DNA of 56,816 nucleotides, filler included, from Perkinsus olseni (Eukaryota), in the NCBI GenBank assembly GCA_013115125.1. It is 3 parts of 3 records of this genome, joined end to end, with 100 filler letters (N's around TTAATTAATTAA, not from the genome) between each part and the next. Parts side by side here need not be neighbours in the genome. Positions count along the whole stretch, not along the records: positions 1 to 19,026 come from JABANN010000605.1; 2 more parts are not named here. The stretch is one strand, 5' to 3'. The notes below the pieces were generated by a model that made no database searches, was not told where the DNA came from, and worked only from the letters and a program-made list of their open reading frames with translations. Both the position numbers and the translations under genes were made by a program. Position 1 is the stretch's first letter. Each line of letters starts with the position of its first letter. Shown in pieces: positions 1 to 38,101 of the stretch.

Positions 1-37
1 TCAAACACGTAGTATGTGCTGAATTAGACTGATTTTT

Positions 38-589
38 GTGATTTGCATATCGAATTGGAACACCCTGTATATTCATACCGACTTCTTGCAAGCTTCCAGA
101 ACCGGTCTCGAAAACCCCTGGAACGTATGGAAGCCAGATACGATAAAGCGAAAAAGGGACAAGTGCGTTACCATCTGCGTCAACTACGAAGGACTCGAGG
201 TCGCTCTCCGGGAATTCAGCCGAGGGGCATGCACCTCGCACCCCAGCAAGCCAAGCATCATGGGCGTCCCTCCCAGGGCCAGATTCCGGGACTACATGGA
301 TGGACGCCGGGTCATCTATATTGGGGTGAAGATCAAACCAGTCAGTTTGGTACGGAGTTGCGTCACCACACTCCATAGAAAACATACCCAGGCCGGTGTC
401 GTGGTCGGCGAGGAGAACAATTCTAAAGAAGAAGCGCTCGTAGACGAATTCATCAGAACTTTTTTTGATGCCTCGGGGCCTCACGGTTGTGGGGCACCGC
501 GTAGGTTTGGTGGTGCCGCCCTTTCCACAACCATAGGCCAGTACGGCAACAAGATAGACGGAGATGATGAGACGAAGGGCCATTATTAG
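38..589 (+). CDS. ORF of unknown function, possibly a retroelement pol (RNase H-like) remnant
   Basis: 183-codon open frame with non-ATG start; segment FIRTFFDASG...GGAAL loosely resembles the RNase H 'TDAS..G.GAVL' motif; no other support. Confidence 0.2.
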   Translation: MICISNWNTLYIHTDFLQASRTGLENPWNVWKPDTIKRKRDKCVTICVNYEGLEVALREFSRGACTSHPSKPSIMGVPPRARFRDYMDGRRVIYIGVKIKPVSLVRSCVTTLHRKHTQAGVVVGEENNSKEEALVDEFIRTFFDASGPHGCGAPRRFGGAALSTTIGQYGNKIDGDDETKGHY

Positions 590-956
590 TCAATGGACAA
601 CTCCCTGTAAGAGAGGGCCAGCTTTGGTAATGATATCGCCCATTCATGTATCAACACAAGTCCCTGCCTACTGTGCAGACGATGCTACCACTTACTCATT
701 CTAGGGGTTAGGTTAACTCAATAGGTAGAGATGGTATACTGCTAGTACACTGCCTCGTCAGGTATGCTTCTGTTCGTTCAGTAAGAGTTGGTATAAAACG
801 CTTAATTCCCTCAAAATATTATGGTGAGTGCGAAAACCTGCTGCCGTGCCGCTTTGCAATACGTCGGTCCCTTTCTCCTTAGCCCTAGTCTCTGATGATG
901 ACCATCATCCTATCCCATCATTTTCCTCTCATGCTCATCCTTTTCTCTCGCCCTCT

Positions 957-1286
957 CGTGACGTGACGCGTCCAATGAATCAGGTATGTCACGCTATTGA
1001 GTTTTCTTACCTCTTTCCTCAAGTCTCGGACCTAGATTGCCGTCGCCCTCCTCACGCGGAGTTCGTAAGATGACACACTGTCCGCTCGTGTCCTTTTCCA
1101 TGTACTTCCCCTGGCTACATGGCTCGTCAGCAGGGAGCAATGTGACTGTGAATTGACGCCCGACTGCTCAACAGGAGTACTCATGTAGGAAAGTGTGGTA
1201 CTGAGACCGTAACCGCTGTGATAGCTAATAGCAGCTAGCAAGACGCCATCAGCCGCAGCGATGGAGACGAGACGCGTCACGTCACG
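957..1286. repeat. 16-bp perfect inverted repeat pair enclosing ~300 bp (MITE-like)
   Basis: CGTGACGTGACGCGTC at 957-972 and its reverse complement GACGCGTCACGTCACG at 1271-1286; GTGACG/GAGACG hexamers recur nearby; no target-site duplication seen. Confidence 0.4.
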
Positions 1287-1581
1287 TGACGAGACGTACG
1301 GGAGCTAGGCGTGCGCACATAGCCGTGGCGTGCGCGCATACACATCTCACAACAGTGACCCCTGTGCGACCCAGGCGAGCGAGATGGTTTCTCGTCTTTG
1401 ACCGTTCGAACGCGGGTGACGGACGGCGCGTGGGGTCCCTACGGTGGGGGATGAAGAGTTCCATCGAGGACGTACCTACAATCAACAACTCCCGATTTGT
1501 CACTCAATGACGAAAACTGATGTAGGGAAACTTCTGTGTAAGTCTTAGTTAAAACAACTTAGTAAGACTTACTTAGTAAGT

Positions 1582-2895
1582 CTACCACTCCTTTTCCTGC
1601 TTGTCCTTATACATCTTCCCACTCATAGTGGTGTCATACTCACATTCAACTGCCAACCAGCTGATAACCTCGGCGCCTTCTGCCGCTGATCGATCGCCTC
1701 GGTACCTATTGGAGTGATGAGATGCAACTTCACATGCACGGGACGGTCAGTCCAATACATGCCACCCTAGGGACCTGCTCTTACTTCGTCATGTCTGTAG
1801 CGCAGTAACCTGGGGTGCAGCTTGTCACGAGTATCCGCCTCGGGTCCTCCATCGCCTCCCGAGCGAGAGCTTTGGTCCATGCGATGAGTAGGAGCTTCGA
1901 GGATCCATACATGCCATCGGCGAACCCAGCTTCTGCAAGGCGCCCTCCTTTGACTGCTTCGAGATACTCATTCCCAATTTCCATTATCTCTCGGACAGTG
2001 CAGTTCTTCGAAGCTGGTCTGCCCTGTAGGGCCTCTGACACCTGAGCGCTTCGAGCATACAGCGGGCGAGAGGGGGCAACCAACCTGGGAGAGGTTGCCG
2101 AGGCCGCTGCCGACGTTGACCACTCTCCCCTTGCCGGCCATCATCGGCTTCAAAGCCTCCGTCACCTTCATGCAACCGTAGAGGTTCACTTCGATGGTGA
2201 GGCGCGCCTAGCAGGAAACAGGACAAGCTCAGACTCTGTAGGACACTGAGGCTGCTCACTCGATCGAATGAGGGTTTTGAGTCGTCTTCGTCCAACAGCA
2301 CCGCCGCGTTATTGATGAGCGCGTCGATTGATGGCGTTAGCCTGGCAATCTGCAAACGAGACCAACGCACAATTTCCAGTGGAGATTCTCCATTTATCCG
2401 GGCTTTGAACCGCGAGCCGCCGCTGTATCGACTGCTTTTGCCCTACTTGTGACTTCCCTGCCCCGATGGATGCATCGTCAGCCACGTCGAGTTGAACGGC
2501 TGCATACGGTTTGAGAATATCTGAAGCACGCTAGGCGATAGGTAATCATATTGCAATGCACGAATACAACGGCTTGGAGGCACGAAGTACACGATAAGAG
2601 TACACGGTAAGTCCATGAATATCATCAGCCCTGCTGGCCCAATGGATAAGGCGCCACCCTCCTAAGGTGGAGATTCCGGGTTCGATCCCCGGGTAGGGTA
2701 TTATAAAACGAACCATCACCTCTGCGGATCTATCCTGTCATATTCCAATCCTAGTCTACCTGAAGCCGGTTTGAGTCGCTCCTCATCCCTAGCGGTCATA
2801 ATCACCCTAACGCCCTCTCCAATGAGTCTCTTGCAGACCTCAAAACCGATGCCTTTATTGGCCCCTGTGACCACCACCACAGGTGAACGAGACAT
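1582..2895 (-). CDS. Short-chain dehydrogenase/reductase, carbonyl reductase-like (multi-exon)
   Basis: Exon 1 MSRSPVVVVTGANKGIGFEVCKRL (TGxxxGxG); later exons QLDVAD, IDALINNAAV, RVVNVGS, catalytic YGSSK, CTPGYCATDMT; GT-AG introns keep frame; stop TAG at 1582-1584. Confidence 0.9.
2628..2700 (+). tRNA. tRNA-Arg(CCT), inside SDR intron 1 (2521-2759), antisense to host
   Basis: Cloverleaf: acceptor GCCCTGC/GTAGGGT, D-arm with TGG, anticodon stem CCACC/GGTGG with loop CT-CCT-AA, T-arm CCGGG-TTCGATC-CCCGG. Confidence 0.95.
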
Positions 2896-3053
2896 TCAAG
2901 GATATAATTATTCAAAACAGCACAACTGCCGTGGCCGGCCCCACTGGAACTAAAACCGAATCGATCAGCTACGTGTGCCAAAGCCATCGAAGTGCGTCTA
3001 AGAGGACCCTCCCCGACTCCGGAACACAACACTCAAGAGAAACCGATAGACTT

Positions 3054-5748
3054 CTATGCACCAGTAGTTTCATCGGGGACCGCTTGATTCGCATCCCTCG
3101 GCATGTTTTCTAATTTCAGTGGGCTCTGTGGGGCCCTGAGGTTGAGTTCCAGATTGGCCACCTTGTCCTCCATTAACTGGACTCGCTTCTCAATCAACTC
3201 CATCGTCCTCTGAATAACCTGACTCCGCCAGTGCACTCGAGCGAACGGCTCTTCGATACCAGAAGCTGGTCACCGACGGCCTCCATCGCTTTGGGTACAG
3301 CCTCCGTAGTAACACTGCCGAGGTCCAAGGTTCGGCTCATCGCAGCTGATGAGACCACATCGCTCACACCCGCCGTTCCGTACACTACCTGCAGCCTCCG
3401 ATCTGGTGAACGCTACGGGAGCTGGCGAAGTCGCATAGCCCCTTGAAGGACCCTCTGACGGGCGGGGATCTGCGAGCACTGGAGTAGGCGCTCGCATTGG
3501 GAGGACTATGGAGTCCTCGATGTCCCAGATATAGACCTGCCGCACAGTGAGAACGCCCGACATTCTGTAGAAGCGTATGGAAGCGGATCCTGCCGGGAGG
3601 AAAGAAAGTATCTCAAGTCTGCCCTGCCCTGTGCCCGAGCGCTACTTCCTGTGATCAATAAACTTGCCTTAACTCATCCCTATCGAAACAAGATAGATCG
3701 GTGCTACTCTGACTAAGCCGGATTTGGCGTTGGACTTGAAACTCACACACACGTCCGACCCGCCATCGAGCCCGGGGTCTCGGTATACCCTGCCTTCCTC
3801 ACCTGTCCGTCAGCCGAGCCAATAATGAGTTCGTACCGACCATTCACATCTTGACACCATCGGACCTAGCCAAAGGCACCCACCTCCGTTGAAAGGATCA
3901 GGAAAGTTTGCGCAGGTCGAGTAGGACCACGACGAAACCTACGCTATTGACAGGAGGCAGCCGAGCAGCTGCCTCAGCCTTCCCTTGGGCCACACACGCA
4001 ATGCGACGCCCTTCTCGCAGGTCCCAAAGACGGATGTCTCCCTGCCGGCCACCCGAGGCCAGGAGGTGGCCGTTATCGGGACGAAGGGCGATGGAGAGAA
4101 CCGACCCTACCAGGGCAGAAGATTTGGTAGAATTGTGGTATTCTAGCGGACCTCGGTCGTGAGCGGGAGAGTATCTTTGAACTAGCTGCTTCCCGGTCGG
4201 CAACCTTGTGTCCCAGAAGTTGATCGATCCATCGTCACCGGCGGCCCCCACGAGCTGTGGGGTGACCGGCGAGAAGGTAACCGAACGGACGGAGAGGGTA
4301 TTATCGTAGAAACTGAAGACCACAGAGACAGCAAGCCTAGACTGATGATTGGGCTGATGGCTTCTATGAGAGGATGACCACTACGGTGGCAAAGGGAAAG
4401 CTTTCTTCTGGCTGTCAGCAAAGCCAAGCTACGGGCGGCGTGGCAAATTACAAGGAGACACTCAATGCCAATAGATGATCGGCCATGATTCGAGTTCACT
4501 TGTTCTTGCGACCCCAATTAATTCGGTGAAGAGTTCTCGAGCAACTCCCTCAGAGCCCCCGAGTAGGGATCACCAGGCGAAGTTGGTCTTGGTCTCGATA
4601 TCCCATACCCTGACGGTGCGGTCTTCCCCTCCGCTCACAGCTGACGCAGCATCAGCCGAGAAAGCACACGTCAGCACCCAGTTAGAGTGGCCAACGAGAG
4701 AACAGAGAAATCTGATAACACAATGATCTCCTAGTAGCAGCGGAACAAAGTAGTACTTTCGATCCTGCAAGTTGGATGATTTCCTGTCACCACCGACGGG
4801 CATCTTCCACAACTTCACAGTCTTGTCGTCCGAACAGGTTAGCATCAGGTCCTGAGCAACCGATGGGACAGGGCGGAGGCGTCGGGAGTGTATCATTTTA
4901 CCAGGCTTTCGCTCAGCTCGGTTAGTCACTTAATCCATCGAGCATTCGTAGACAATTCAGACGTTTCCATAGGAGGGTAATTCATAGGACATTTTTCACT
5001 CAATTATATACTCTCACACAGGTTGTCCGAGATGAGTCGGTGTTATGCGATTTCCGCGCGCTCCCCTCGGACGGAGAGAGGAGAGCACTACCGTTTGAGT
5101 TCGTGACCAATCGAGATCGCGGATAACTCCTGTATGGCAGCCTTTGTAGACAGCCGAGCTGGCACCATTCGAGCTGGGAGCATTGTACCATAGGCGTATC
5201 TGACCTGACCAGCTCCCGGTTGCAGCTATCATGGCTGGAATGGTCTAGTTGGTTATGACGATCGCCTCACACGCGATAGGTCCCGAGTTCGATTCTCGGT
5301 TCCAGTATCTATCATTTCTCATATTACCTACCGTCTTGTCAACTCCAGCGCTCGCAATCCATCGCCCCGATGCATCCGCCGCCACCGCTGTAACTCTATC
5401 ACTGTGGCCCTCACAACGCAGCGGTCTACAACAACAAAGAGACCGATGACGATAACACAAGCTGCAGCAGCAGTCGCTCCACTGAAGAGTGATGAGCGTT
5501 GACTTGCCACCTGGTGTTGTGTTTGGTACTCCAAATGATGACACTACTATCGCCTCCCGAAGAGGCGTATTGGCTGAAACCTAATCATAGACCGATGACC
5601 ATCTACTGAGGCAGACAGACATACCCGCTCCCCCTGACGGTACCGGTACGGCACGAGTGACCGGCCCTTTATGACCCTTGAAGACTCTTGCTATGGACAA
5701 GCCCGGGTTGATGGGGACTGATGCTGAGCCACAGTCGGCAGCAGACAT
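3054..5748 (-). CDS. POC1: POC1-like centriolar WD40 protein (multi-exon)
   Basis: Series of WD40 repeats (VFKGHKGPVT; CEGHSDRVTAV...AGVDKT/IRLW; LTCSDDKTVKLW; RFLCSLVGHSNWV...GEDRTVRVWD; GDDGSINFWD; GRQGDIRLWDLREG) plus C-terminal coiled coil VIQRTMELIEKRVQLMEDKV typical of POC1. Confidence 0.8.
5234..5307 (+). tRNA. tRNA-Val(CAC), inside POC1 intron (5200-5331), antisense to host
   Basis: Acceptor GCTGGAA/TTCCAGT, anticodon stem ATCGC/GCGAT with loop CT-CAC-AC, T-arm CCGAG-TTCGATT-CTCGG. Confidence 0.95.
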
Positions 5749-6127
5749 TACGATCGGCCACGGTCTGTGATAGGCTACAGAAATTAACCAACGCAACCGA
5801 TGTGGAGTAACTCGTTGCCAGATCCACGACACCTTAGGGGTGGATACCTAGGCGCTGCGACTACATCTGACTCAGCCCCGATTCACGATGCCAGGTTCCC
5901 CCTCTCAACCCTTCGTGGTCGACCGAGATACTCATTAGATCGAGGACGCCAGTACTGTTCAATAGACTAGCATTTCCGAGTCCCAACAGTAACTGTATGA
6001 CCCCACGCCCTCCCAGCAGTCACTTCAACTCAACTCGGTATCCCTATGACCAGTAGCCTGTGACCGTCAAGCCGTCGCTTTCACCGCTGTAGTTGTTATT
6101 AATACTAATAGCATCATCAGCACCACC

Positions 6128-6672
6128 TTAGTCAACCTGAGCCATGGCGACGTCCTTCTCAGTGTAGCTCTTCTTGCCAGAGTCCTTGGAGCGGTTCTTG
6201 CGCTCAAGGAGGGCCTTGCGGTCCTTGTCCATCTTTAGCTTGGTGATGACGACCTTGGAGGGATGGACACCGACGTTGGCGTGGGAGCCGTTGACCTGAA
6301 GAGCGACCATAAAAAATTACCGAGAGCGGACTGACTCATTACCTTGTCGCGGGTAAGGCGCTCGATGTGGATGACGAACTTCTTACGGTAGCAGGCGGTG
6401 ACCTTGCCCTCACGGTCGCTGTAGTGGCCGCGGACAACCATGACCTCATCATCCTTACGGATGGGGACGGACCTGGTGGATGATGATAACCCGAGTAGCT
6501 ACTAGAGGTGTCAGAAACGTCCCTTGTGATGAAATTACCTGACGTTGTACTTGGCCCTCAACTCCTTGGACAGAGGGGCGGACATGATGATCCTCCTCTG
6601 GTCCGAAGGGGCGGTGAAGTGGGCCTTACGGCTCTTACGACGAGAAGACGACACCGCGGGCGAGAACTTCAT
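6128..6672 (-). CDS. RPL26: 60S ribosomal protein L26 (uL24), 3 exons
   Basis: [23 protein letters not shown]...[30 protein letters not shown]...[26 protein letters not shown]; two short GT-AG introns. Confidence 0.97.
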
Positions 6673-7343
6673 GGTAAACAACTACGGCTACTACCAAACA
6701 TTAATCAACTCGGCCTCCATCTTGACCTATTTGGTATCCTGCAAGGTCGACCTCGTAGATATTCACAGCAAGCAACCCACGCATATGATACGTCGAGAGC
6801 ATCGAGCACACTGCTACACCTCGAGTCTGCCCTACTACTGGAAAGACGTCTGCCACACCACCGGGGCCGAAATTGGCAAAGCCAGGGCATCGCGTTGGCG
6901 CGCTGGGATGAAATCGATCACGTGATCGATTATTCCGCGCATCGTGAGAGATGGTGGCAGATGAGCGCGACGAGCCTACCCCGGCCACGAGTGGCAGTCC
7001 GATATGGCATACTTGTGCATTGACATACGCTTCCCGTATTTGTACACTACCCTTGGAAGATGATCTTCCGAAGATCTCGGTGTCGCGCGCCACAAAATTC
7101 ATGCGTCTTTGTGGATTGGTCGGTAGAAGACAACACCGCTACACCCTAGTGAGAGGAGCAATTTTTGATCGTTGCGGCTGCAATGGAGGACACTGTGAAA
7201 TGTCTCACTTCTCCACACTGCCGACAGTCGGATGAGGGAAGGTGAACGGCTCGAAGAAGTTCCGGGGAGGAAGCACACCAACTTGACCCATTTCGTATCT
7301 TGCACGCTCAACCTAAAGATACATTTCAGTTCCTCTGTGCCCC

Positions 7344-8240
7344 ATGTCCTCTCTCCCACCCTTGCCCACTGTGAAGGAGTACAAGCCGACCTCAGACGAT
7401 CTCGCCGAGGCTGTCCAAGTCATCTCACAGGCCGCCGAGGTCCCCGAATTTTGGGCCAAAAAATACGAAAGAGATGCGGTGAAAAATTGGGACCTCTTCT
7501 ACAAGAGAAACAAAACCAACTTCTTCAAAGACCGACACTACCTCGTCACAGAGTTTGGCGAAGTTGCTCGCAGTGACTCATTCCTCGGTTCCAAAGAGAC
7601 GGGGCTGCTGGTGGAAATCGGCTGTGGCGTCGGTAACGCTGTTATCCCTCTAGCGGAGGCCTGCCCGAACCTCTCGATCCTCGCCACTGACTGCAGTAGT
7701 GTCGCGATTGGGCTCCTCGATGAGAGGTTGAAGACAGAAGAGGCCTCGGTGGCCCAGAGGATCTCTACCAGGGTGATCGATGCCACCAGCGCTGAGTTCC
7801 CTCCGAAGGACTTGGTCGGGTCGGCTGACTTTGTGTTGTTGCTCTTTTGCCTGAGTGCGATTTCGGAAGCTCATTACTCGGCCATTGTGGACGGGTGTCG
7901 AAAGATCCTCAAGCCCGGTGGAATAGTGCTGTTCCGAGATTACGGAAAATACGATTTGGCGCAGTTGCGGTTCTCTAAGGACAAGGGAAGAGCAGCGACG
8001 GCATCGCGGCTGCCCGGCGAGGAGGACTTCTACGTTCGCCAGGATGGGACTCGGGCCAAGTTCTTCACCGAGGGATCTTTGGCTGACCTGTGGGAAAGGC
8101 AGGGAGGGTTGGAGAGAGTGGAGCTGCTTACTCACCGAAGATGCGTTGTTAATAGGAAGCAAGGGAAGGAGATGAAGCGAGTGTGGATCCAGGCTAAGTG
8201 GCGAGTTCCTCTTCCCAATGATAGTCACGTTTCTCTGTAG
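7344..8240 (+). CDS. tRNA N3-methylcytidine methyltransferase (METTL2/METTL6/Trm140 family), intronless
   Basis: KNWDLFYKRNKTNFFKDRHYL, EIGCGVGN SAM motif, LFCLSAI, LKPGG.VLFRDYGKYDLAQLRF, YVRQDGTRAKFF, MKRVWIQAK. Confidence 0.93.
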   Translation: MSSLPPLPTVKEYKPTSDDLAEAVQVISQAAEVPEFWAKKYERDAVKNWDLFYKRNKTNFFKDRHYLVTEFGEVARSDSFLGSKETGLLVEIGCGVGNAVIPLAEACPNLSILATDCSSVAIGLLDERLKTEEASVAQRISTRVIDATSAEFPPKDLVGSADFVLLLFCLSAISEAHYSAIVDGCRKILKPGGIVLFRDYGKYDLAQLRFSKDKGRAATASRLPGEEDFYVRQDGTRAKFFTEGSLADLWERQGGLERVELLTHRRCVVNRKQGKEMKRVWIQAKWRVPLPNDSHVSL

Positions 8241-8832
8241 CTCGGTGCTGTTCTCGTTACAGGTGGAAGTGTTAATTACAGCGGTGAGGGGTTTTTTGGG
8301 GATTGGCCCTACCTCAACGATCGGACGATCCACCGGAGTTGCCCCGGCTTCGGCTCTCTTCCCATCTATAGGAGTAGTTCTCCAGGTTAATCGATACAGT
8401 GTCTCTTATCGATGGTCGAGTGTGGGGCGGATGGTCGCCTTGTATTTGAGGGATTCTAGCGGTGGTGGTGGTCAGTGTGTGGTTGTACCGTGATTCTTAG
8501 TATGTTGCATCAAGTTCACGACAGTGGGAAGATTCCTGGCTTCAAATCCCAACTCACTCGTAACTGTAATTTATGGTTTACGAATCGACGTTGTTGGTTA
8601 GAACGCCATGTTGCTGTTATTGATGGTTTGGTTTCTTCATACTGCTCCAAGTGTAACAGACTTTCTGCTGTGATTCGGACGTATCTTAGGTCGACTCACG
8701 GCGATCGCAGAAAGGTCGATTCGGTCGGAGGGGCCACTGCCATGGGAATCTTTCTAGGGTGATACCGTGCGTTCGGGTGTGTCTTATTTCCAGCCGCCGA
8801 CTGCCCTCCGGCCCTGAAGTTCATATTTTTTC

Positions 8833-11800
8833 ATGTCATCTGTGCGGACATCAACGAGAGGCTCATCAGGCCGGCGACTGACTCCAGCGAAGCGGTGCTC
8901 ATCAGCTAGAGATGAAGATATCACTTGGTCTCCTGGGAAGAGGAAGAAATTGGAGACGTCTAAGGGGCCTCCGAGCATGGGGACTGAGAGGGAGGCGCAG
9001 TGTTACTTGAAAAGTAGTCAGAGTGGGGTCACCGCTGCTACGCTGAGCTCAACGCCGAGGATTGTGCGGGTGGCGAGGCTGCGGGAGAGAGTTAGAAGTA
9101 ACGGTAGTCAGCTGGGGGATGACGACGGACTCGCGGCGAAGGAGGAGCAGGAGTTGATGAGGAATATCAGGCCTTGTGCAACGCAGATGGACACCTTCGA
9201 TCGGGAGGAGGAACTGGAGCTGTTGGAGGCAGCTGAGATGATAGAGGCGGGGGAGATGAGCATGGGGCAACAGTCAGGGGGCAGCTCGTGGAGTAGCAGT
9301 TGCCAAAGGAGTGGTATGAATCAATTCCCGACGCAAGTGCAAGCGTCGTCAATGCCGGTGCGTGAGAATCAATTTAATGCTGTCAATGTTATTCGGAGCC
9401 CTCCTCCATTGACTGTGAGGGATGGCCTATCTTCGTCATCACCTCCGAGTGCTCCATTACGGAAGCCGGCGAGACCTTCGGGAGAGAAGAAGCTGATCCC
9501 CGGAACACAAGTTAATGACGATTGGAGTGACATCGAGCTTGATGACCTAGAGGCGGCTTGCACTCAGGTGAGAGTTGGTGGAGATCTGGTAGTGAATGTT
9601 GCTTCCCTTTGCCGCTTCCCGTGCTAGGTTGAGTGTGCAGTAGCAGCATTGAAGGATCCAGCAGCGGAAACTGCTAAGGGAGTTGATTATGATGACGACT
9701 TTGGATCATTGGTTTCGGAGGACCTTCTAGCTGCGATGGAGGAGATCGAGGCTGCGGCAGAGCGAGCAGCAGGTGAGGGCTGGTGGCTGCGGGGTGGGAG
9801 GGCCTCGAGTAAGTTTGCGCAATTGCAGAGGGAGCTCTTTGGCTTTAAGTGGTGGGGATTCGTTCGAAAGAGATGGGCTTGCGGGACAAGGTTGAGAAAA
9901 ATCGCGAAAATAATTCCGCCGCCGGGAATTGAACCCGGGTCTCCCGCGTGACAGGCGGGAATACTCACCACTATACTACAGCGGATCTGTTTTTGTAGGT
10001 GTTCATTTCAAGTAGTGCAGTCGAGCCACCCCCAGGTACCGATGAGCAACCCCCGTGGGGCAAATGGGCGAAGCACATCGAGAGCCGCTTGAGCAGCGAA
10101 AAGCCTCAGATCAACTCACCGGCTCACGAAGTGAGTCAATTGTGGTAACAGCGTTGGTCCGAGGTGGTAGGACGATCAATGCTGCTAACGCTGAATGAAG
10201 CCAATATTCACCATCTCTCCTCACGCCCTCGTTCAGGTTCACTTGACTCTTGAGAATGGTAAAGCGGTGGTCCTGAAAGGTCCTTGGTACTGGTTCTGGC
10301 AAGGTCACTGCAATAAGCTCGTGCTCGCTGGGGATCCGGTGAACCTAGTGTTGGCGGATGAGAAGGACGCCGAGGCTCCTGTGGTCATCTGCGGGGAGAC
10401 CGGCAACTTCCTCATATTTCACCCGTCTATTCTCCTGTCCGGGACGACGGTCTCGAACGCTCTGCCTTGCCACAGAAAGACGCTGCTGCAATACCTTCTT
10501 AGTGATGTTGGTTACGGAGCGCAGAATAACATCTACGCAACAGTCGGCAACGCTGTTCACGCGATACTGCAAAGTTCTCTGATGTTCGGTCGAGGTCGAC
10601 TGGATGAGGGATACGTCCGTCAGGCTATCGAGGAGTCTAAGATGGATTTGTGGTTCAGTGGATTCAGTAATGCCTCCGTACTGGAGCGCCACGTGCGGGA
10701 AAGAGTACCGCAAATAGCCAAGTGGCTGAGTGAAGTAATACCTGCGAAATTTAGTCGAATGATTGCGGCTGAGCAAAACGTCCACTGCCAAAAATTTGGA
10801 CTGAAGGGGAAGATCGATGCCGTGATGGAGCTGACTGGAGGGCAGGGGAAGGCCTGTCTCGAGATCAAGACGGGGAAGCCTTGGCACACTCATATGGGGC
10901 AAGTGATGCTGTATCATCTCCTCATGATGGACCTGTACGGGGAGGAGGCAGTGAAGGGCGGTCTGCTGGAGGTTGGGTATTTCAATGGGAATAGAAATCA
11001 GAGGGGGCCTCCGGGAGGAGCTCCACCGTCCGCCGAGGTCAGCGAGGTAGGCTTTCGAGTTCAGTTGACAAAGGAGTGGTATGAAGCTCTATATTTCCGT
11101 CGAGAAAATTCTAATTTGGTCCGAGTTAGCCGTACTCGTGATAGTAATTTCCCCATACCATAACTTTCGTACTCCTGGAGCCACGTCAACAATGCTTCCA
11201 GTTCTCATTACCGATCAACAGGAGAGATGGGCAGAACTGCGCTTCCCACTACGGAACGGTCCGGCTCACTTACACTGATCGTTAGCCTGGCAAGTACTGT
11301 TGATTCAGTCATGCTACTATCTGTTTTTCACTTAGAAGTTCTTCCGTGTACCTCCCCCCTCTCCGCCCATCAGTAGCCCCCTCCCCTGCTATCCATATTA
11401 GGTAACCCCCAACCCTACTGAGCTCGATAATCTGGTTTGTGTCCGAAATACATTGGCGTTGCATCTAGCGCGGAAAACTCTACCGCCTCCCATCGGCTCC
11501 AAGTGGGAGTGTGAGAGGTAGTAGGGGCGTGGGAACTGGTAGATAATATTTTTTTCGAGCGGAATTGTATTTCCACCATGCTGTTGGTGAGAATTCCTAC
11601 TCTGATTTTTAACGCTACATTTTCAATAAGGTTCCATGCGAAGTTGTGTTATCCTGTTGATCAAAGGACCTCTTTGCTTCTGCTATTAATAACATGTTGA
11701 TCATGCATTGCGATCATTGCTGATGCTAAGGCGAAATAACCGGAGGGAAAAGCTATCGCTTTACCTTTGGTTTTTATGTGTGTCTTTTGGAGGTGGGCGA

Positions 11801-14800
11801 CAGTGCGGGTACGATCTAGTACGGAATACGGTACGGGTACGAGTACGCCTCCGTAACCGTACTACCCGTCGCGCGGGTTCCCTCAGTACCGTACTAGTAC
11901 GCCGTACTTGAAGTACGGCGTAATTCAGTACACGCATGCGTTATTTAATATATTTAATACGTACTAGTTCTCCGTACCCGTAATAGGTGTTCAGTTTGAA
12001 TCGTACTGCGTACCGTACTTTCCTCGATCCCAGTACGCTTGCCCAACTCTAGTGTCTTTTGTAGCCTAAAATATTTCTCGGCATCTCAGGTGTCCCCTCG
12101 CTTCTCACTGTGTAGCCGCACATGTCGTATTGGAGAAGCGGTGAGAGGGAATTTCGTGGCGCGCGGTAATTCCACTAGTGTCGTCCTCAGAAGCGCAACA
12201 GAATTTGGCTGTGCTCCTCCTGTTGTCGTTGATTCGTCCGGCGGCCTTTTGGCTGAGTATATACGGAAATGGTGGAGGTGGTTGCGGAGGGAAGAGCGCG
12301 CTGGTACTACGGGATTGGGTGGTGGTAGGGGCCGCGACCAACGTAGAGGTTCTCAAGGGACCTGCGGCACTCCTCCCTCCCTCCGTCGAGTATTCACGCC
12401 TGCCGTTCCCGCTATTGGCGCGAGACGTGAACTGGCTGGTCGTTGGTCGCGTCTTAGTTTTTTACTCTATCGCAGCCTCGATCCCCTTCCCACTCAGTTT
12501 CTCTGTTCGTTGCGCCTTTAGTCGTCGTAGAATTTCTTTACGAAGGAAGTATTTTTGGTGGGGTTTTTTTCCGGAATGTTTCCTCTGGTATTGATGTGTT
12601 CGACTGTATGTTCTTAACCGGCGCCTTGTTTATTAGTCATATTTTTACTATTTTATATATATTATCACGTAAGTTATCGATAATATATATTATAGCCAGT
12701 GACTTATATTTGTTACCAATATAATATGGAAATGAAACCATGGGCATAAAATATGAATATTATTTAGTATTAATAAATAATGGTAGGCATTAGCTGGCTT
12801 GTATTCATTCCCGTCAGCCGCGGCCTCTACGCCTGAGAGACGGTTATGGTCGCGTGTGTAGCATAAACATGAACTTGGATGGTTATTGGAGGTCGATGGC
12901 AATCAACGACACGACCGTCGCTGTTATCGTGGCATAATAATAGGCATAATTTAGCGAGAATCATTTGGGCAATCAGTAGTACTGTATAATTTACAGCGTA
13001 CATATAATATATACAGTACTACTGATTATCCTAATATATATTATATGTAGCGCCTTTTTCGGAAAGTCCATTATCACAAAACATGATACATTCAGCCATG
13101 CAAGACAACAAGTCTACTTAATCTGTCTTATTCTGCGAGCTGGGGCTAGTACTGAGCGGTCCGACTTCAACTATATAGCGCTTTAGGAAACCAACACCAT
13201 GTCGTTATGTATTAGTGAGAGGATGCGGGGGATGTATGGTATGAGCCAGCGTCTCCAAGCGACTGTCTTCGATGCCATAGCTCGATCTCTCAACTTGAAA
13301 AGTCGCAAGAACAGGAGGAGGAGGTTATCTATTGTTAGGTGACCATGCTCCAGTAGACGTCCTCGAGAACGCTCGTGTGATGGAAATATTGCTCGGCGAG
13401 GGCAAGCAATTATGGCGGGTAGAAGGAGATGCTTGTGGCCAGGAGATCTCCTCAGGAGACGAACTGCACGTGAGGTTGTGCGGGACGCTCGGAGGTGTTG
13501 GTTGTTGAGCGGTTCCACTCGAACTAGCATGCAGAGGCCTGGCTGAGTCTGAATCGGCGCTGTGGGGGCGATAGTTACCGAGGCCGCAAGGCTGGACACT
13601 GAATGCCTATCGATGACTTAGAGAAGTCTTTGAGCTTCTTAGATTTTTATCGGAAACCCGAGAAGAACGTGTTCCCAGTTTTTTCGCTCGGAACTAAATT
13701 TCTGAGGCGTTAATGGAATTCGTGCTAAGTATCATTCTGAGTTCAATATTGGGCGGAAATAGAAATAGCATCAGACCTGTTTGTAATCAATAGCATTAGC
13801 AAGAAATGTGTTCTTCGACTGTGGACGAACAGGAGTGGTTTTCCACAGACTGCGTGGCTGCATATCGCTTTTGGTTGATCACGCATGATCTTTCGCAATT
13901 ATGTAGATGGTATCTTCAAAATCGATCACGTGATCGATTTAGGTATCTTATCAGCGTTATGGTCCACGTAACATAGCCACGGGCGAGGTCACTGAAGTGT
14001 CAAGTCAAGGGTCGAGAATAATAGTGGTTCTGTCCATGAGGGATGACGGAATGCCGGACATCCCTCCCACTCATGGCGACATCGAGGACCTCGAGCGCAT
14101 GGCGACTGATGCGAACAAAAGTGTTTACGTCAATTCCAAGCGGTTGTTTAAGCTCACGAGAGTCGACTGGGGCAGTGCTGGCCAGACCAAGCGGAATCGA
14201 TCTCTCCTGCTTGAGCTCGCTCACGATAGCAGTGGCAGGGGATGGGCGGCTATTTTGGCGGGAGCAGCGAAGGTGCAGCTGCCGAGATTGCGGCCGTGGG
14301 TGGCGGTCCCGGTGCCGTACGAAATCAGACCGGCGTTCGAGACGCTGAATGAGGGACAGAAGCGGGCTGTGTGCGCAGCGCTAGAGCTAGTTCGTCAGGG
14401 TGGCTCAGAATTGACTGGAGATCGATGGGCTCTGCCGGTTTGTGGATACCCTGGGACGGGGAAGTCGAGTATGCTGGCTGTGCTGTTGCTCGGGCTGAGG
14501 TATGGCAGTGAAAGAAGAGTACTGCTGGTCAGCCATACTCATACGGCTGTTGATAATCTTCTGTTGAAAACTAAGGAGTTGGCAGGAACCAACAACTTGA
14601 AGGACTTCGAGTAGGTTGGGAGTGAGCTGGTTCATCAGTTTTAGGCTTGGGTGGGGTGCCGTTCTGGCTGTAGAAAAGTGTGGCCGAAAAAAGGGAAAAA
14701 CTTCTATGTTTCCACTGTTGATAGTAGTGTGAGGATTGTGCTTGTTTTCGTCTTAAGTACGTAACGCCTGGCGCTGAAGTCCTCGGAAACTCTTAGAAAA

Positions 14801-17800
14801 TTTACGGAATACTACCTCTATGAATGAATATCGCTTTGCTGTTTCTACTATAACAAATTCTGATCAGGGTGGGAATCATAGCCGTACGGACGTTTTATTT
14901 TTTCATGTGCTACGCTCGCTGACGTTCTCTCTGCGTCGCTCTGTTCAGCTTCGTGCGCCTGGGTCGGTCCTCATCGACCTCGGTCAAGCCTGAGCTGGCC
15001 GAGCACTACCCTCCGTCAGAATGGCCGTCGGTGGAGAGTATCTCAGACTTCCTCCGCACGAGGGTGAGCAGGTGAAGCAGGAGGAATCTTTTTTTCTGTC
15101 CGTTGCCAGGGCGGTCGGCTTGTGGCGTGCACAGCTCTAGCGTGTCACAATGCATTGCTTTGGCCGCCGAAGCCGCCGAATGAGGAAGACGTCCCCACAC
15201 AGCCGCCCAGAGTTAATTCGAGCCAACCGAAGGTGCTGATCGGAGTTGGCAATTTTTGTTGCTATGATGAATTGCGGTATCAGATTTTGGATAAAGGATT
15301 GCCACAGCCGCCCGATTTCGATATAGTATTGGTGGATGAAGCGGGTCAAGTAAGGTTATCGGGGATCTTTCCGGACAATGTCGACCGTAATTCTCGTATG
15401 CAATGATCTTGTAAAACCGCCCTCCGTTTCGACGCGCACCCGACCCCCTGCAAGGCTTGCTACTGACCGACCCTGGGGCTCGGGAATACGGTTCTTCTTT
15501 ACCTACTGAAGGGTGTAACTACGATGAAGGTCCTCTTTCTGTACTGTATGTATCACTCACTCTTGCATACGTAAGAGCGACCACTGGCCGTTTGATTTTG
15601 ATTGTTAGGACTGATTCCGGGATCGACCCGGTCTGTTTTCAGAACACCTTGTGTAACTAGGACTCTATCTTCCGTGAATTATTCTTGAAGCCTTTGGGCG
15701 TTCCAATTGAACATGACAGACGCTCTCTGTCTGAGAGTCTCTGTAACAAAAATCGATTTATTGAGCTCTCAATATTCGAGCCTCCGCCACTGAGAGACTC
15801 GCTCGAGCCCGGTCAGGATAGCCACGAAAATGAGCTGTCTGATTCTTGTCCCCTGCAAGACGCCCTTTGGTCCATGTTATGGGTTTATCAGTATGGGGAC
15901 GGCGACGCGGGATCGGGGCACCTGCCTAGCGAGAGCCGCGATCTCTACGAGAGCTCCATAGTGGGGTCAGTCTCGGCCTGTCCCCTATTGTCCATTGCAG
16001 CGGCCGAGTGCCGAGCAAATATTCCGCGTAGTGTTGTGGCATTTTCGCAATTGGCAAGCCTGGGGCTGGCAGCTTGGATACGTGCCGGTAGATTCCCGCG
16101 TTAATAGCAGGAAGAAGGTCCCGGTGGCTCCGGGGCCCGTCTACGTAGCCCTTTCTCGAGCACGCACGTCGGAGACCTTGATCATTCTGGGCACGTTATT
16201 ATTGTCACCGAGCTTCTCGTAAAGCGAAAGCCGAAATGGAGCGGTTGAGAGCTATTCCGACTCACCTTTCCTCGAGCAATGTTTCCATGTCGCGGCATTG
16301 CATACGTTTGCCTAACGTACCTTGACGTAACTGGACCGAGTTCTGGCAACGAGTCGTTTGGTTCTCGTTGCCAGAACTCATGAAAGACAAGAGGTGTTCG
16401 GTAGATGAGTTGTGTATTTACGCTCGGTATGTCTTGACCGTCGCTCTACGTGTTCGGCGAGCAATGGGTCCGACACGGACGATATTCTCCCGCAAGTGTT
16501 CAAGAAGGCCTCATAAGTCAACGACCAGAGTACCTAAGTTACTCTAGGAGTCATGGCTCAACGATGATGGATGATGCTCCACGATTTAATCGTCCTTGGT
16601 ACCCATATTACGGATAATGTCAAAGATATCGTCGAAGGGTTGAAGCTTCTGAAGATCTGAACGGCTCATGGCGATTGCCACCTGTGCTTCGAGCTGACAC
16701 TACCAAGAGCAGAAAGGCATCGCTCGAGTGGTCGTTAGTTGTTCGTTGTCAACTTCGTCTTATAGAGTTCCATTCTCGATGATCACTTTCAGTAATTTTC
16801 TAGGGGGCTTGCCATCTGGGAAAATGATGTTCTTCATCGGAAGGCGCCGTCTCAAAAAGCCTCTCTCTGGCACGGGCTGAAGGCATTGACAAATAGCACT
16901 TCCTTCCTCTTGATGGGAATTAAGATGCGGATCTCATCGCAGGCCGCGGACTCGACGTTGTGGTGCTCTTTGAAGCTGGCCACTCGGGGAGCGATTCTAG
17001 TAGGAGATCAATACCAGTTGCCGCCTGTCGTTAAGGACAGGTGAGAAGAGGGCGCTTGCTATCAACTGTAGAAAATATTCTTCGCGGTTGTACGAGAGAA
17101 TGGTTTATCACCCACGCTGTATGTTCGCTTCAGGAAGTGCCGCGATGAGGGCATGTCGGAGACCCTCTTCGCTCGTTGCGCTCGCGAAGTGGCGTCGATA
17201 GAGCTGACGGCCCAGTACAGGATGTGCCGTGGTATACAGAGATTCGTGAATGAGCTCTTCTACGAGGGGAAGTTGAAATGCGGCAGTCGGGAAGTTGAGG
17301 ACGCCAAGATGCCGGTAAGGACTCTGTGTGCTGCCACGTGTATCGATTCTCACTTCATTCGTGATACGAGGGAAGTGAACAACCGGTGGCTAAAGTCCTA
17401 AGACGTTGGTCATGAATTAGGCGTTCAACTGGACGTTGTGAATTCTCTTTTTGATTGGATTGATCGAACTGGAAGTCGGTCGTATCATCACTGATGATTC
17501 ACCAGTGATATTGTAGAGTGGATAGGGCGAGTCGAAGTTCCCATTCGGAACTCTGTTCATTCGCCTATTGTATGCAAACCTCACTAGCGTACTATTTATT
17601 TATTGTTCATGCGAGAGAGACAATTGCGCAGTCACACAGAATTCTACGCTGTATTTTATCGGGACAATTTTGCTACCTCGCGGATCTCCCAGGGTTGATT
17701 GTAGCAGCTCGTGAAGCATCGCGCGTTCGTCCAGTGGACATATGACGTCTTCACGACTCTGCAAAACTAGTTATCGAATGGTCCTTCTTAGCGTGTCTTC

Positions 17801-19026: not shown

Positions 19027-19126
19027 NNNNNNNNNNNNNNNNNNNNNNNNNNNNNNNNNNNNNNNNNNNNTTAATTAATTAANNNNNNNNNNNNNNNNNN
19101 NNNNNNNNNNNNNNNNNNNNNNNNNN
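19027..19126. other. Assembly gap with artificial six-frame stop spacer
   Basis: N-run flanking TTAATTAATTAA (19071-19082). Confidence 0.97.
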
Positions 19127-37619: not shown

Positions 37620-38033
37620 TTACACTTCATCACTCCATGGGAAAGCATTCCCAATGGACATCTTTTGAGAGGCTTGTAGTGTCCTCGAGTACACCGGTTG
37701 AATAAGGCCACCCTCATCTCCGAGATCCTCAGAAGTCTCATAGTCAGTCATGTCGACACTCGTGCCCTAACAAGAGTGAGGCTCATCGAAGAAGTCCTCA
37801 TGGTGGACTATCACCTCATCAGTCCTCGGTGACGTACCACCTCCATCGAGAACATCAAGTGAACTCTCCGACAGGAAAGTTGAACCTTTGCCGCCGCCAA
37901 GTCCTCTCGCGGGGCTGAATGGTTGGCTATTGNNNNNNNNNNNNNNNNNNNNNNNNNNNNNNNNNNNNNNNNNNNNTTAATTAATTAANNNNNNNNNNNN
38001 NNNNNNNNNNNNNNNNNNNNNNNNNNNNNNNNG

Positions 38034-38101
<68 letters not shown>

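Follow-up and report, generated by a model that had tools for sequence, protein, structure and literature searches.

Three transfer RNA genes lie antisense inside protein-gene introns on one contig of Perkinsus olseni

We analyzed a stretch of 56,816 bases from the genome of Perkinsus olseni, a parasite of molluscs, and found that each of its three transfer RNA (tRNA) genes, tRNA-Arg(CCT), tRNA-Val(CAC) and tRNA-Asp(GTC), lies within an intron of a gene that encodes a protein and is antisense to the host transcript. The stretch (hereafter the window) consists of three contigs joined by two artificial spacers of the form N44-TTAATTAATTAA-N44 at 19027-19126 and 37933-38032, and all three tRNA genes are carried by contig 1 (1-19026). 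Their hosts are SDR (a carbonyl-reductase-like gene), POC1 and DNA2. A first-pass annotation of the same DNA had proposed this arrangement; intronic position and antisense orientation stood at all three loci, whereas the coordinates of the DNA2 intron were wrong. Intron-nested tRNA genes are an already known arrangement. Those described here are probably stand-alone genes of RNA polymerase III (Pol III) that have lodged in introns, which would be the main dispensable DNA of a compact, intron-rich genome.

Identification of the tRNA genes

The tRNA genes were called with ARAGORN and with the Rfam model RF00005, for which the gathering score is 29. tRNA-Arg(CCT) maps to 2628-2700 on the plus strand (56.3 bits), tRNA-Val(CAC) to 5234-5307, also on the plus strand (64.7 bits), and tRNA-Asp(GTC) to 9914-9985 on the minus strand (65.1 bits). 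These coordinates and strands are exactly those of the first-pass annotation. All three genes are full length, with model positions 1-71 of 71 matched, and A- and B-box-like internal sequences are present in each. A permissive Rfam search of the whole window on both strands (E<=1) returned four matches, namely the three tRNAs and a sub-threshold mascRNA match over tRNA-Asp. It found no further tRNA or tRNA fragment, in agreement with the first-pass annotation, which had found no intact intergenic tRNA, and no tRNA-like match on the host strands opposite the tRNA genes. Like intron-encoded small nucleolar RNAs (snoRNAs) and mirtrons, each of the three is a small RNA gene within a host intron. 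Unlike those RNAs, which share the strand of the host and arise by processing of the intron after splicing, the tRNAs are on the opposite strand in all three cases and therefore cannot derive from the host transcript.

Host introns of the three tRNA genes

Host introns were placed on the basis of protein homology, by tblastn with proteins of related species and by an exact spliced aligner. The predicted GT..AG introns were fixed by exact spliced alignment or by orthologue collinearity.

SDR is encoded on the minus strand. Its exon 1 (2760-2895; MSRSP...LKPAS) was found in the open reading frame (ORF) list and by tblastn with P0127 and P0128, the orthologues from P. chesapeaki and P. marinus, respectively. 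It is followed by intron 1 of 239 nucleotides (nt) (2521-2759; GTAGAC..CAG), which contains the antisense tRNA-Arg, and by exon 2 (2447-2520; DILKPYAAVQLDV...), the latter placed by tblastn and both by spliced alignment. Across the junction the two orthologues read ...TARDE..L..AA|DILKPYAAVQLDV..., and the window reads ...TARDEERLKPAS|DILKPYAAVQLDV..., without insertion or deletion of a residue. Such collinearity in both species fixes the intron and bears out the PAS/DILK join that had been claimed for it. A partial SDR model from a 4,474-nt contig of another P. olseni assembly (P0126) shows 87% identity over the query exon. Its N-terminus is the translated antisense 5′ half of tRNA-Arg with the upstream flank, and 30 of 31 residues are identical, by hand count, to those of the window ORF 2443-2661 (window 2569-2661, minus strand). 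Since P0126 starts within the antisense tRNA-Arg, this diverged copy has tRNA-Arg in the corresponding intron. The position of the start is also consistent with the assembly having broken at the tRNA gene.

POC1 is likewise on the minus strand. According to the spliced alignment, an exon ending in ...AGVDKT (5332-5425) precedes an intron of only 132 nt (5200-5331; GTAGGT..CAG), the donor of which comes from the spliced alignment and the DKT|IRLW join from the P. chesapeaki protein P0008. The antisense tRNA-Val occupies 74 of these 132 nt and is separated from the splice sites by 24 nt and 34 nt. The following exon (5092-5199; IRLWYNAPSS...SRTQT) comprises 36 codons, and the next intron is 240 nt long (4852-5091). 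Two P. olseni gene models (P0006 and P0007) instead join ...VDKT to DLML... by a 480-nt intron; tRNA-Val is intronic under either model. P0008 contains 36 extra residues to which the translation of 5092-5199, an exon also placed by tblastn, shows 89% identity (32 of 36 residues by hand count), and the 132-nt intron is therefore better than the 480-nt model. The DKT/IRLW join of the first-pass annotation is thus supported by a P. chesapeaki protein that includes the downstream exon. By skipping this conserved exon, P0006 and P0007 both lack 36 residues of the P. chesapeaki protein.

The DNA2 locus, on the plus strand, required a correction. Exact spliced alignment of the P. olseni protein P0001 places exon 2 (...EEIEAAAERAAG) at 9628-9772 and intron 2, with the antisense tRNA-Asp inside, at 9773-10035 (263 nt; GTGAGG..CAG). 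Spliced alignment further gives exon 3 at 10036-10130 (TDEQPPWGKW...SPAHE), which had been overlooked in the first-pass annotation, and intron 3 at 10131-10236 (106 nt; GTGAGT..CAG), after which the large exon begins. The P. chesapeaki protein P0002 has the same layout and the same intron 2 junction, and its counterpart of exon 3 also has 31 residues, of which 13 are identical (hand count). The intron proposed earlier, 9891-10236 with an RDK/VHLT join, is in frame only by way of a 41-nt micro-exon (9850-9890) that is found in neither P0001 nor P0002, and it was rejected in favor of 9773-10035. tRNA-Asp is intronic and antisense either way. Under the supported model, however, the distance between its 3′ end and the 5′ splice site of the host is 141 nt instead of 23 nt. 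Consequently, the spacing of about 23-24 nt to the 5′ splice site that had been described for both tRNA-Val and tRNA-Asp is confined to tRNA-Val. Further downstream, DNA2 has two very long introns (12304-13338, 1,035 nt, and 15350-16942, 1,593 nt, plus strand) beside many of 41-60 nt.

Sequences flanking the tRNA genes

A repeat search evaluated against shuffled flanks detected a direct repeat of 7 nt, CTATCAT, on the two sides of tRNA-Val. The upstream copy covers positions -8 to -2 relative to the gene (5226-5232, plus strand) and the downstream copy positions +2 to +8 (5309-5315, plus strand). A repeat of this length arose in shuffled sequence with P=0.003 for flanks of 15 nt, 0.024 for 30 nt and 0.10 for 50 nt. 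The same test gave no direct repeat beyond chance in the flanks of tRNA-Arg and tRNA-Asp (P 0.46 to 1.0). When tRNA-Val, the 2 nt adjoining it and one copy of CTATCAT are subtracted, 49 nt of the POC1 intron are left, a length within the 41-60 nt class, the commonest among introns on this contig. The repeat suggests a candidate target-site duplication produced by insertion of a tRNA gene into an ordinary short intron.

Comparison of the flanks of the three loci gave no local alignment scoring at least 26 (shuffle mean 14.9, maximum 21), which speaks against any mobile element or introner common to the three introns compared. No transposase and no flank shared between the tRNA loci was found, and in none of the three genes is the discriminator base followed by CCA or by a run of A. 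Perkinsus marinus, of the same genus, carries Dada DNA transposons, for which tRNA genes are the target (PMC3706591). Dada inserts into tRNA genes, whereas the P. olseni genes are intact; in further difference from Dada, transposase and shared flank are missing and the 7-nt repeat brackets the whole tRNA gene.

We also scanned the tRNA strands for T-runs. Downstream of tRNA-Asp, TTTT at +4 and TTTTT at +13 (9897-9910, minus strand) resemble a Pol III terminator. Among the three genes only tRNA-Asp has such a textbook terminator; runs of at least four T occur on contig 1 at an average of about 2.7 per kb per strand.

Expected frequency of intronic and antisense placement

To relate these positions to a base rate, we compiled a feature table of contig 1 from the aligned gene models, in which the RPL26 splice sites were placed by eye. 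Exons account for 8,085 nt (42%), introns for 8,148 nt (43%) and intergenic DNA for 2,793 nt (15%). The 35 introns form two groups by length: 13 measure 41-60 nt and the others 77 to 1,593 nt, with a median of 97 nt. Given that a site on contig 1 is non-coding, the probability that it is intronic is 0.74, and three of three intronic tRNA genes are expected with p=0.41. An all-antisense orientation has a chance of 1/8, and the joint probability of both on contig 1 is 0.05. Thus, intronic placement is what the base rate predicts within the contig, because 74% of its non-coding DNA is intron, and the arrangement is compatible with chance.

Gene neighborhood and gene models

The source organism is Perkinsus olseni. 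The large DNA2 exon past the tRNA-Asp locus is 100% identical to the P. olseni protein P0001 and 71% identical to a P. chesapeaki protein, and the genes around the tRNA loci have named relatives in P. olseni, P. chesapeaki and P. marinus. The P. chesapeaki models of SDR, POC1 and methyltransferase plus DNA2 carry the locus tags FOL47_001527, FOL47_001528 and FOL47_001530 on a single 65,941-nt contig, which indicates that gene order is conserved between both species. Metagenomes were scanned for related DNA with two queries: 52 nt of tRNA-Val gave no matches, and the large DNA2 exon gave 67 pattern matches, none of which was confirmed.

The contig also carries a single-exon methyltransferase gene (7344-8240, plus strand; Pfam Methyltransf_12/25/23/11). 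Its start is about 670 nt from RPL26 on the opposite strand (6128-6672, minus), forming a divergent spacer, and all three tRNA genes are oriented toward this spacer. Automated models of these genes contain fusions. P0007 joins POC1 to SDR through a 197-nt pseudo-intron (2865-3061, minus strand) that bypasses the POC1 stop and the SDR start codons, while the actual spacer between the two genes is about 160 nt. Similarly, the P0002 model of P. chesapeaki runs methyltransferase and DNA2 together (8241-8832, plus strand).

A Pfam scan of 50 long ORFs, meant for annotating contigs 2 and 3, matched seven, to GNT-I, tetraspanin, NOC3p, two RRM, L26 and methyltransferase. Contig 3 begins with a (GTT)n simple repeat at its edge (38033-38070), which likely caused the assembly break. 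The spacer N44-TTAATTAATTAA-N44 is a six-frame stop linker, and the contigs on either side of it are not biological neighbors.

Discussion

Our analysis places three intact tRNA genes inside introns of SDR, POC1 and DNA2, all in antisense orientation. We consider it probable that they are stand-alone Pol III genes for which introns provide most of the available dispensable DNA. Each gene would rely on an internal promoter for Pol III transcription, which would run head-on to Pol II, since the gene is antisense to its host. The host introns would be spliced normally, because the host strand holds the reverse complement of the tRNA, which the tRNA model does not recognize. At least tRNA-Val may have inserted into a pre-existing short intron. 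That all three are antisense could be due to chance (1/8), or else sense copies could be mildly selected against, because they would place a substrate of RNase P/Z in the host pre-mRNA.

Several observations weigh against this reading. The sample consists of three tRNA genes on one contig, and the base rate applies to contig 1, where the intron fraction is raised by the large DNA2 introns. When only positions 1-10300 are considered, which excludes most of the long DNA2 introns, the probability that a non-coding site is intronic falls to 0.45, that of three intronic genes to 0.09 and the joint probability with antisense orientation to 0.012. All three genes are antisense, and their hosts lie on two different strands. 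Downstream of tRNA-Arg no run of at least four T occurs until +406 (2701-3106, plus strand), and downstream of tRNA-Val none until +1855 (5308-7162, plus strand). The CTATCAT footprint was noticed post hoc, and at a single locus of the three. Finally, both the splicing of the hosts and the expression of the tRNAs are predicted from DNA and protein sequence.

Some of these points would fit a genome-wide rule, by which Perkinsus tRNA genes are preferentially intronic and antisense, with sense copies purged through RNase P/Z cutting of the host pre-mRNA and with DNA free of Pol II traffic being scarce in a densely transcribed, trans-splicing genome. We regard such a rule as unlikely. It would account for three antisense genes in hosts on both strands and for the low joint probability in the local 10.3 kb, and the spacer of about 160 nt between POC1 and SDR indicates that intergenic room is scarce. 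In Caenorhabditis elegans, the best-studied comparator, sense intronic tRNA genes have less Pol III occupancy than antisense ones (PMC4999229). Against the rule, intronic placement is expected over the whole contig (p=0.41), and orientation alone has a chance of 1/8. The same study reports that introns hold 44% of the 609 tRNA genes of C. elegans, a share no different from chance, and that 56% of the intronic genes are in host orientation, with no antisense bias. The proposed selection is therefore not general, and nesting in introns need not entail an antisense rule.

C. elegans is also a close parallel in other respects. In both organisms intact tRNA genes lie wholly within the introns of genes that encode proteins, the intronic share is as the intron fraction predicts, and spliced-leader trans-splicing takes place, although in C. 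elegans both orientations occur. P. olseni differs in that all three genes are antisense, against 56% sense in the nematode, and in that one host intron is just 132 nt long. Expression of intronic tRNA genes and their conservation across species are documented for C. elegans, where host promoters affect the expression of intronic tRNA genes (PMC4999229), whereas at the P. olseni loci expression is predicted. A study of deuterostomes made the same comparison of tRNA gene density between introns and intergenic DNA, and it gives 49 of 1032 tRNA genes as intronic in a sea cucumber, a density ratio of 1:2.9, with a similar trend in zebrafish and acorn worm (PMC8580430). Unlike these deuterostomes, in which introns are depleted of tRNA genes, P. 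olseni has three of three in introns, and intergenic DNA is scarce locally. A literature search by title and abstract opening found no work on where in its genome Perkinsus has its nuclear tRNA genes.

The late T-runs at +406 and +1855, compared with +4 and +13 at tRNA-Asp, could instead mean that tRNA-Arg and tRNA-Val are poorly expressed or silent inserted copies (retro-copies or transposed copies) and that only tRNA-Asp is a working gene. The 7-nt repeat around tRNA-Val would agree with this. However, both are intact full-length tRNAs with scores of 56 and 65 bits, both lack an encoded CCA or A-tail, and tRNA-Arg has no flanking repeat. In addition, numerous human tRNA genes reportedly have no nearby T4 run and terminate non-canonically (PMC3141230). 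We thus find it improbable that tRNA-Arg and tRNA-Val are such copies.

It is still harder to credit that the nested genes regulate their hosts, with host transcription or splicing tuned by head-on Pol III units or by a cloverleaf-like structure that the antisense tRNA forms within the pre-mRNA, and we hold this to be highly improbable. Precedent comes from human nuclear intronic mitochondrial-derived tRNAs (nimtRNAs), which are cloverleaf-forming sequences. They increased spliced mRNA in reporter assays, sometimes as the reverse complement too (PMC7722341). In the Val intron, just 24 and 34 nt are left between the insert and the splice sites. Yet nimtRNAs are mitochondrial-derived look-alikes that act as pre-mRNA structure, unlike the P. 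olseni genes, which are bona fide tRNA genes of the cytosolic type. Predicted folds of the whole introns in host orientation form the antisense tRNA as a closed domain in one of three (Arg); 19 bases of the antisense segment of Val and 40 of that of Asp are predicted to pair outside it. Folded alone, the antisense tRNAs have predicted z-scores of -1.7 to -2.3. Nothing in the sequence requires coupling between the tRNA genes and host expression, and the three hosts are functionally unrelated.

That the tRNA genes are in fact intergenic and the supposed introns join separate genes is almost certainly wrong and was rejected. Automated models are indeed imperfect: POC1 is fused to SDR in P0007 and the methyltransferase to DNA2 in P0002, and a POC1 exon is missing from both P0006 and P0007. 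Yet every junction that flanks a tRNA is internal to a single conserved domain or protein. At SDR, the N-terminal part of the Rossmann fold aligns collinearly across three species, one of which, P. marinus, has an independently annotated protein; DKT|IRLW falls in a single WD repeat; and the DNA2 exons on either side are conserved in P. chesapeaki.

If the arrangement is only local, it is a clean case of intron-nested tRNA genes in an alveolate parasite, with a possible insertion footprint at tRNA-Val and missing terminators at tRNA-Arg and tRNA-Val as the details of note. It also brings corrections to three automated gene models, namely the skipped POC1 exon, the POC1-SDR fusion and the methyltransferase-DNA2 fusion. 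A bolder and distinctly unlikely extension is that Perkinsus, whose compact and intron-rich genome uses trans-splicing and carries an unusually large number of tRNA genes, spreads these genes by insertion into its short introns of about 45-60 nt and retains mainly the antisense copies. Most tRNA genes would then be antisense residents of introns, and their insertion would be one source of the longer intron class. Should antisense bias and insertion footprint prove to be genome-wide, Perkinsus would offer a system for studying how Pol III genes are accommodated in genomes densely transcribed by Pol II. It would also be a natural test of whether cleavage by RNase P/Z selects against sense intronic tRNAs, and the spread of tRNA genes would be tied to the evolution of intron length.

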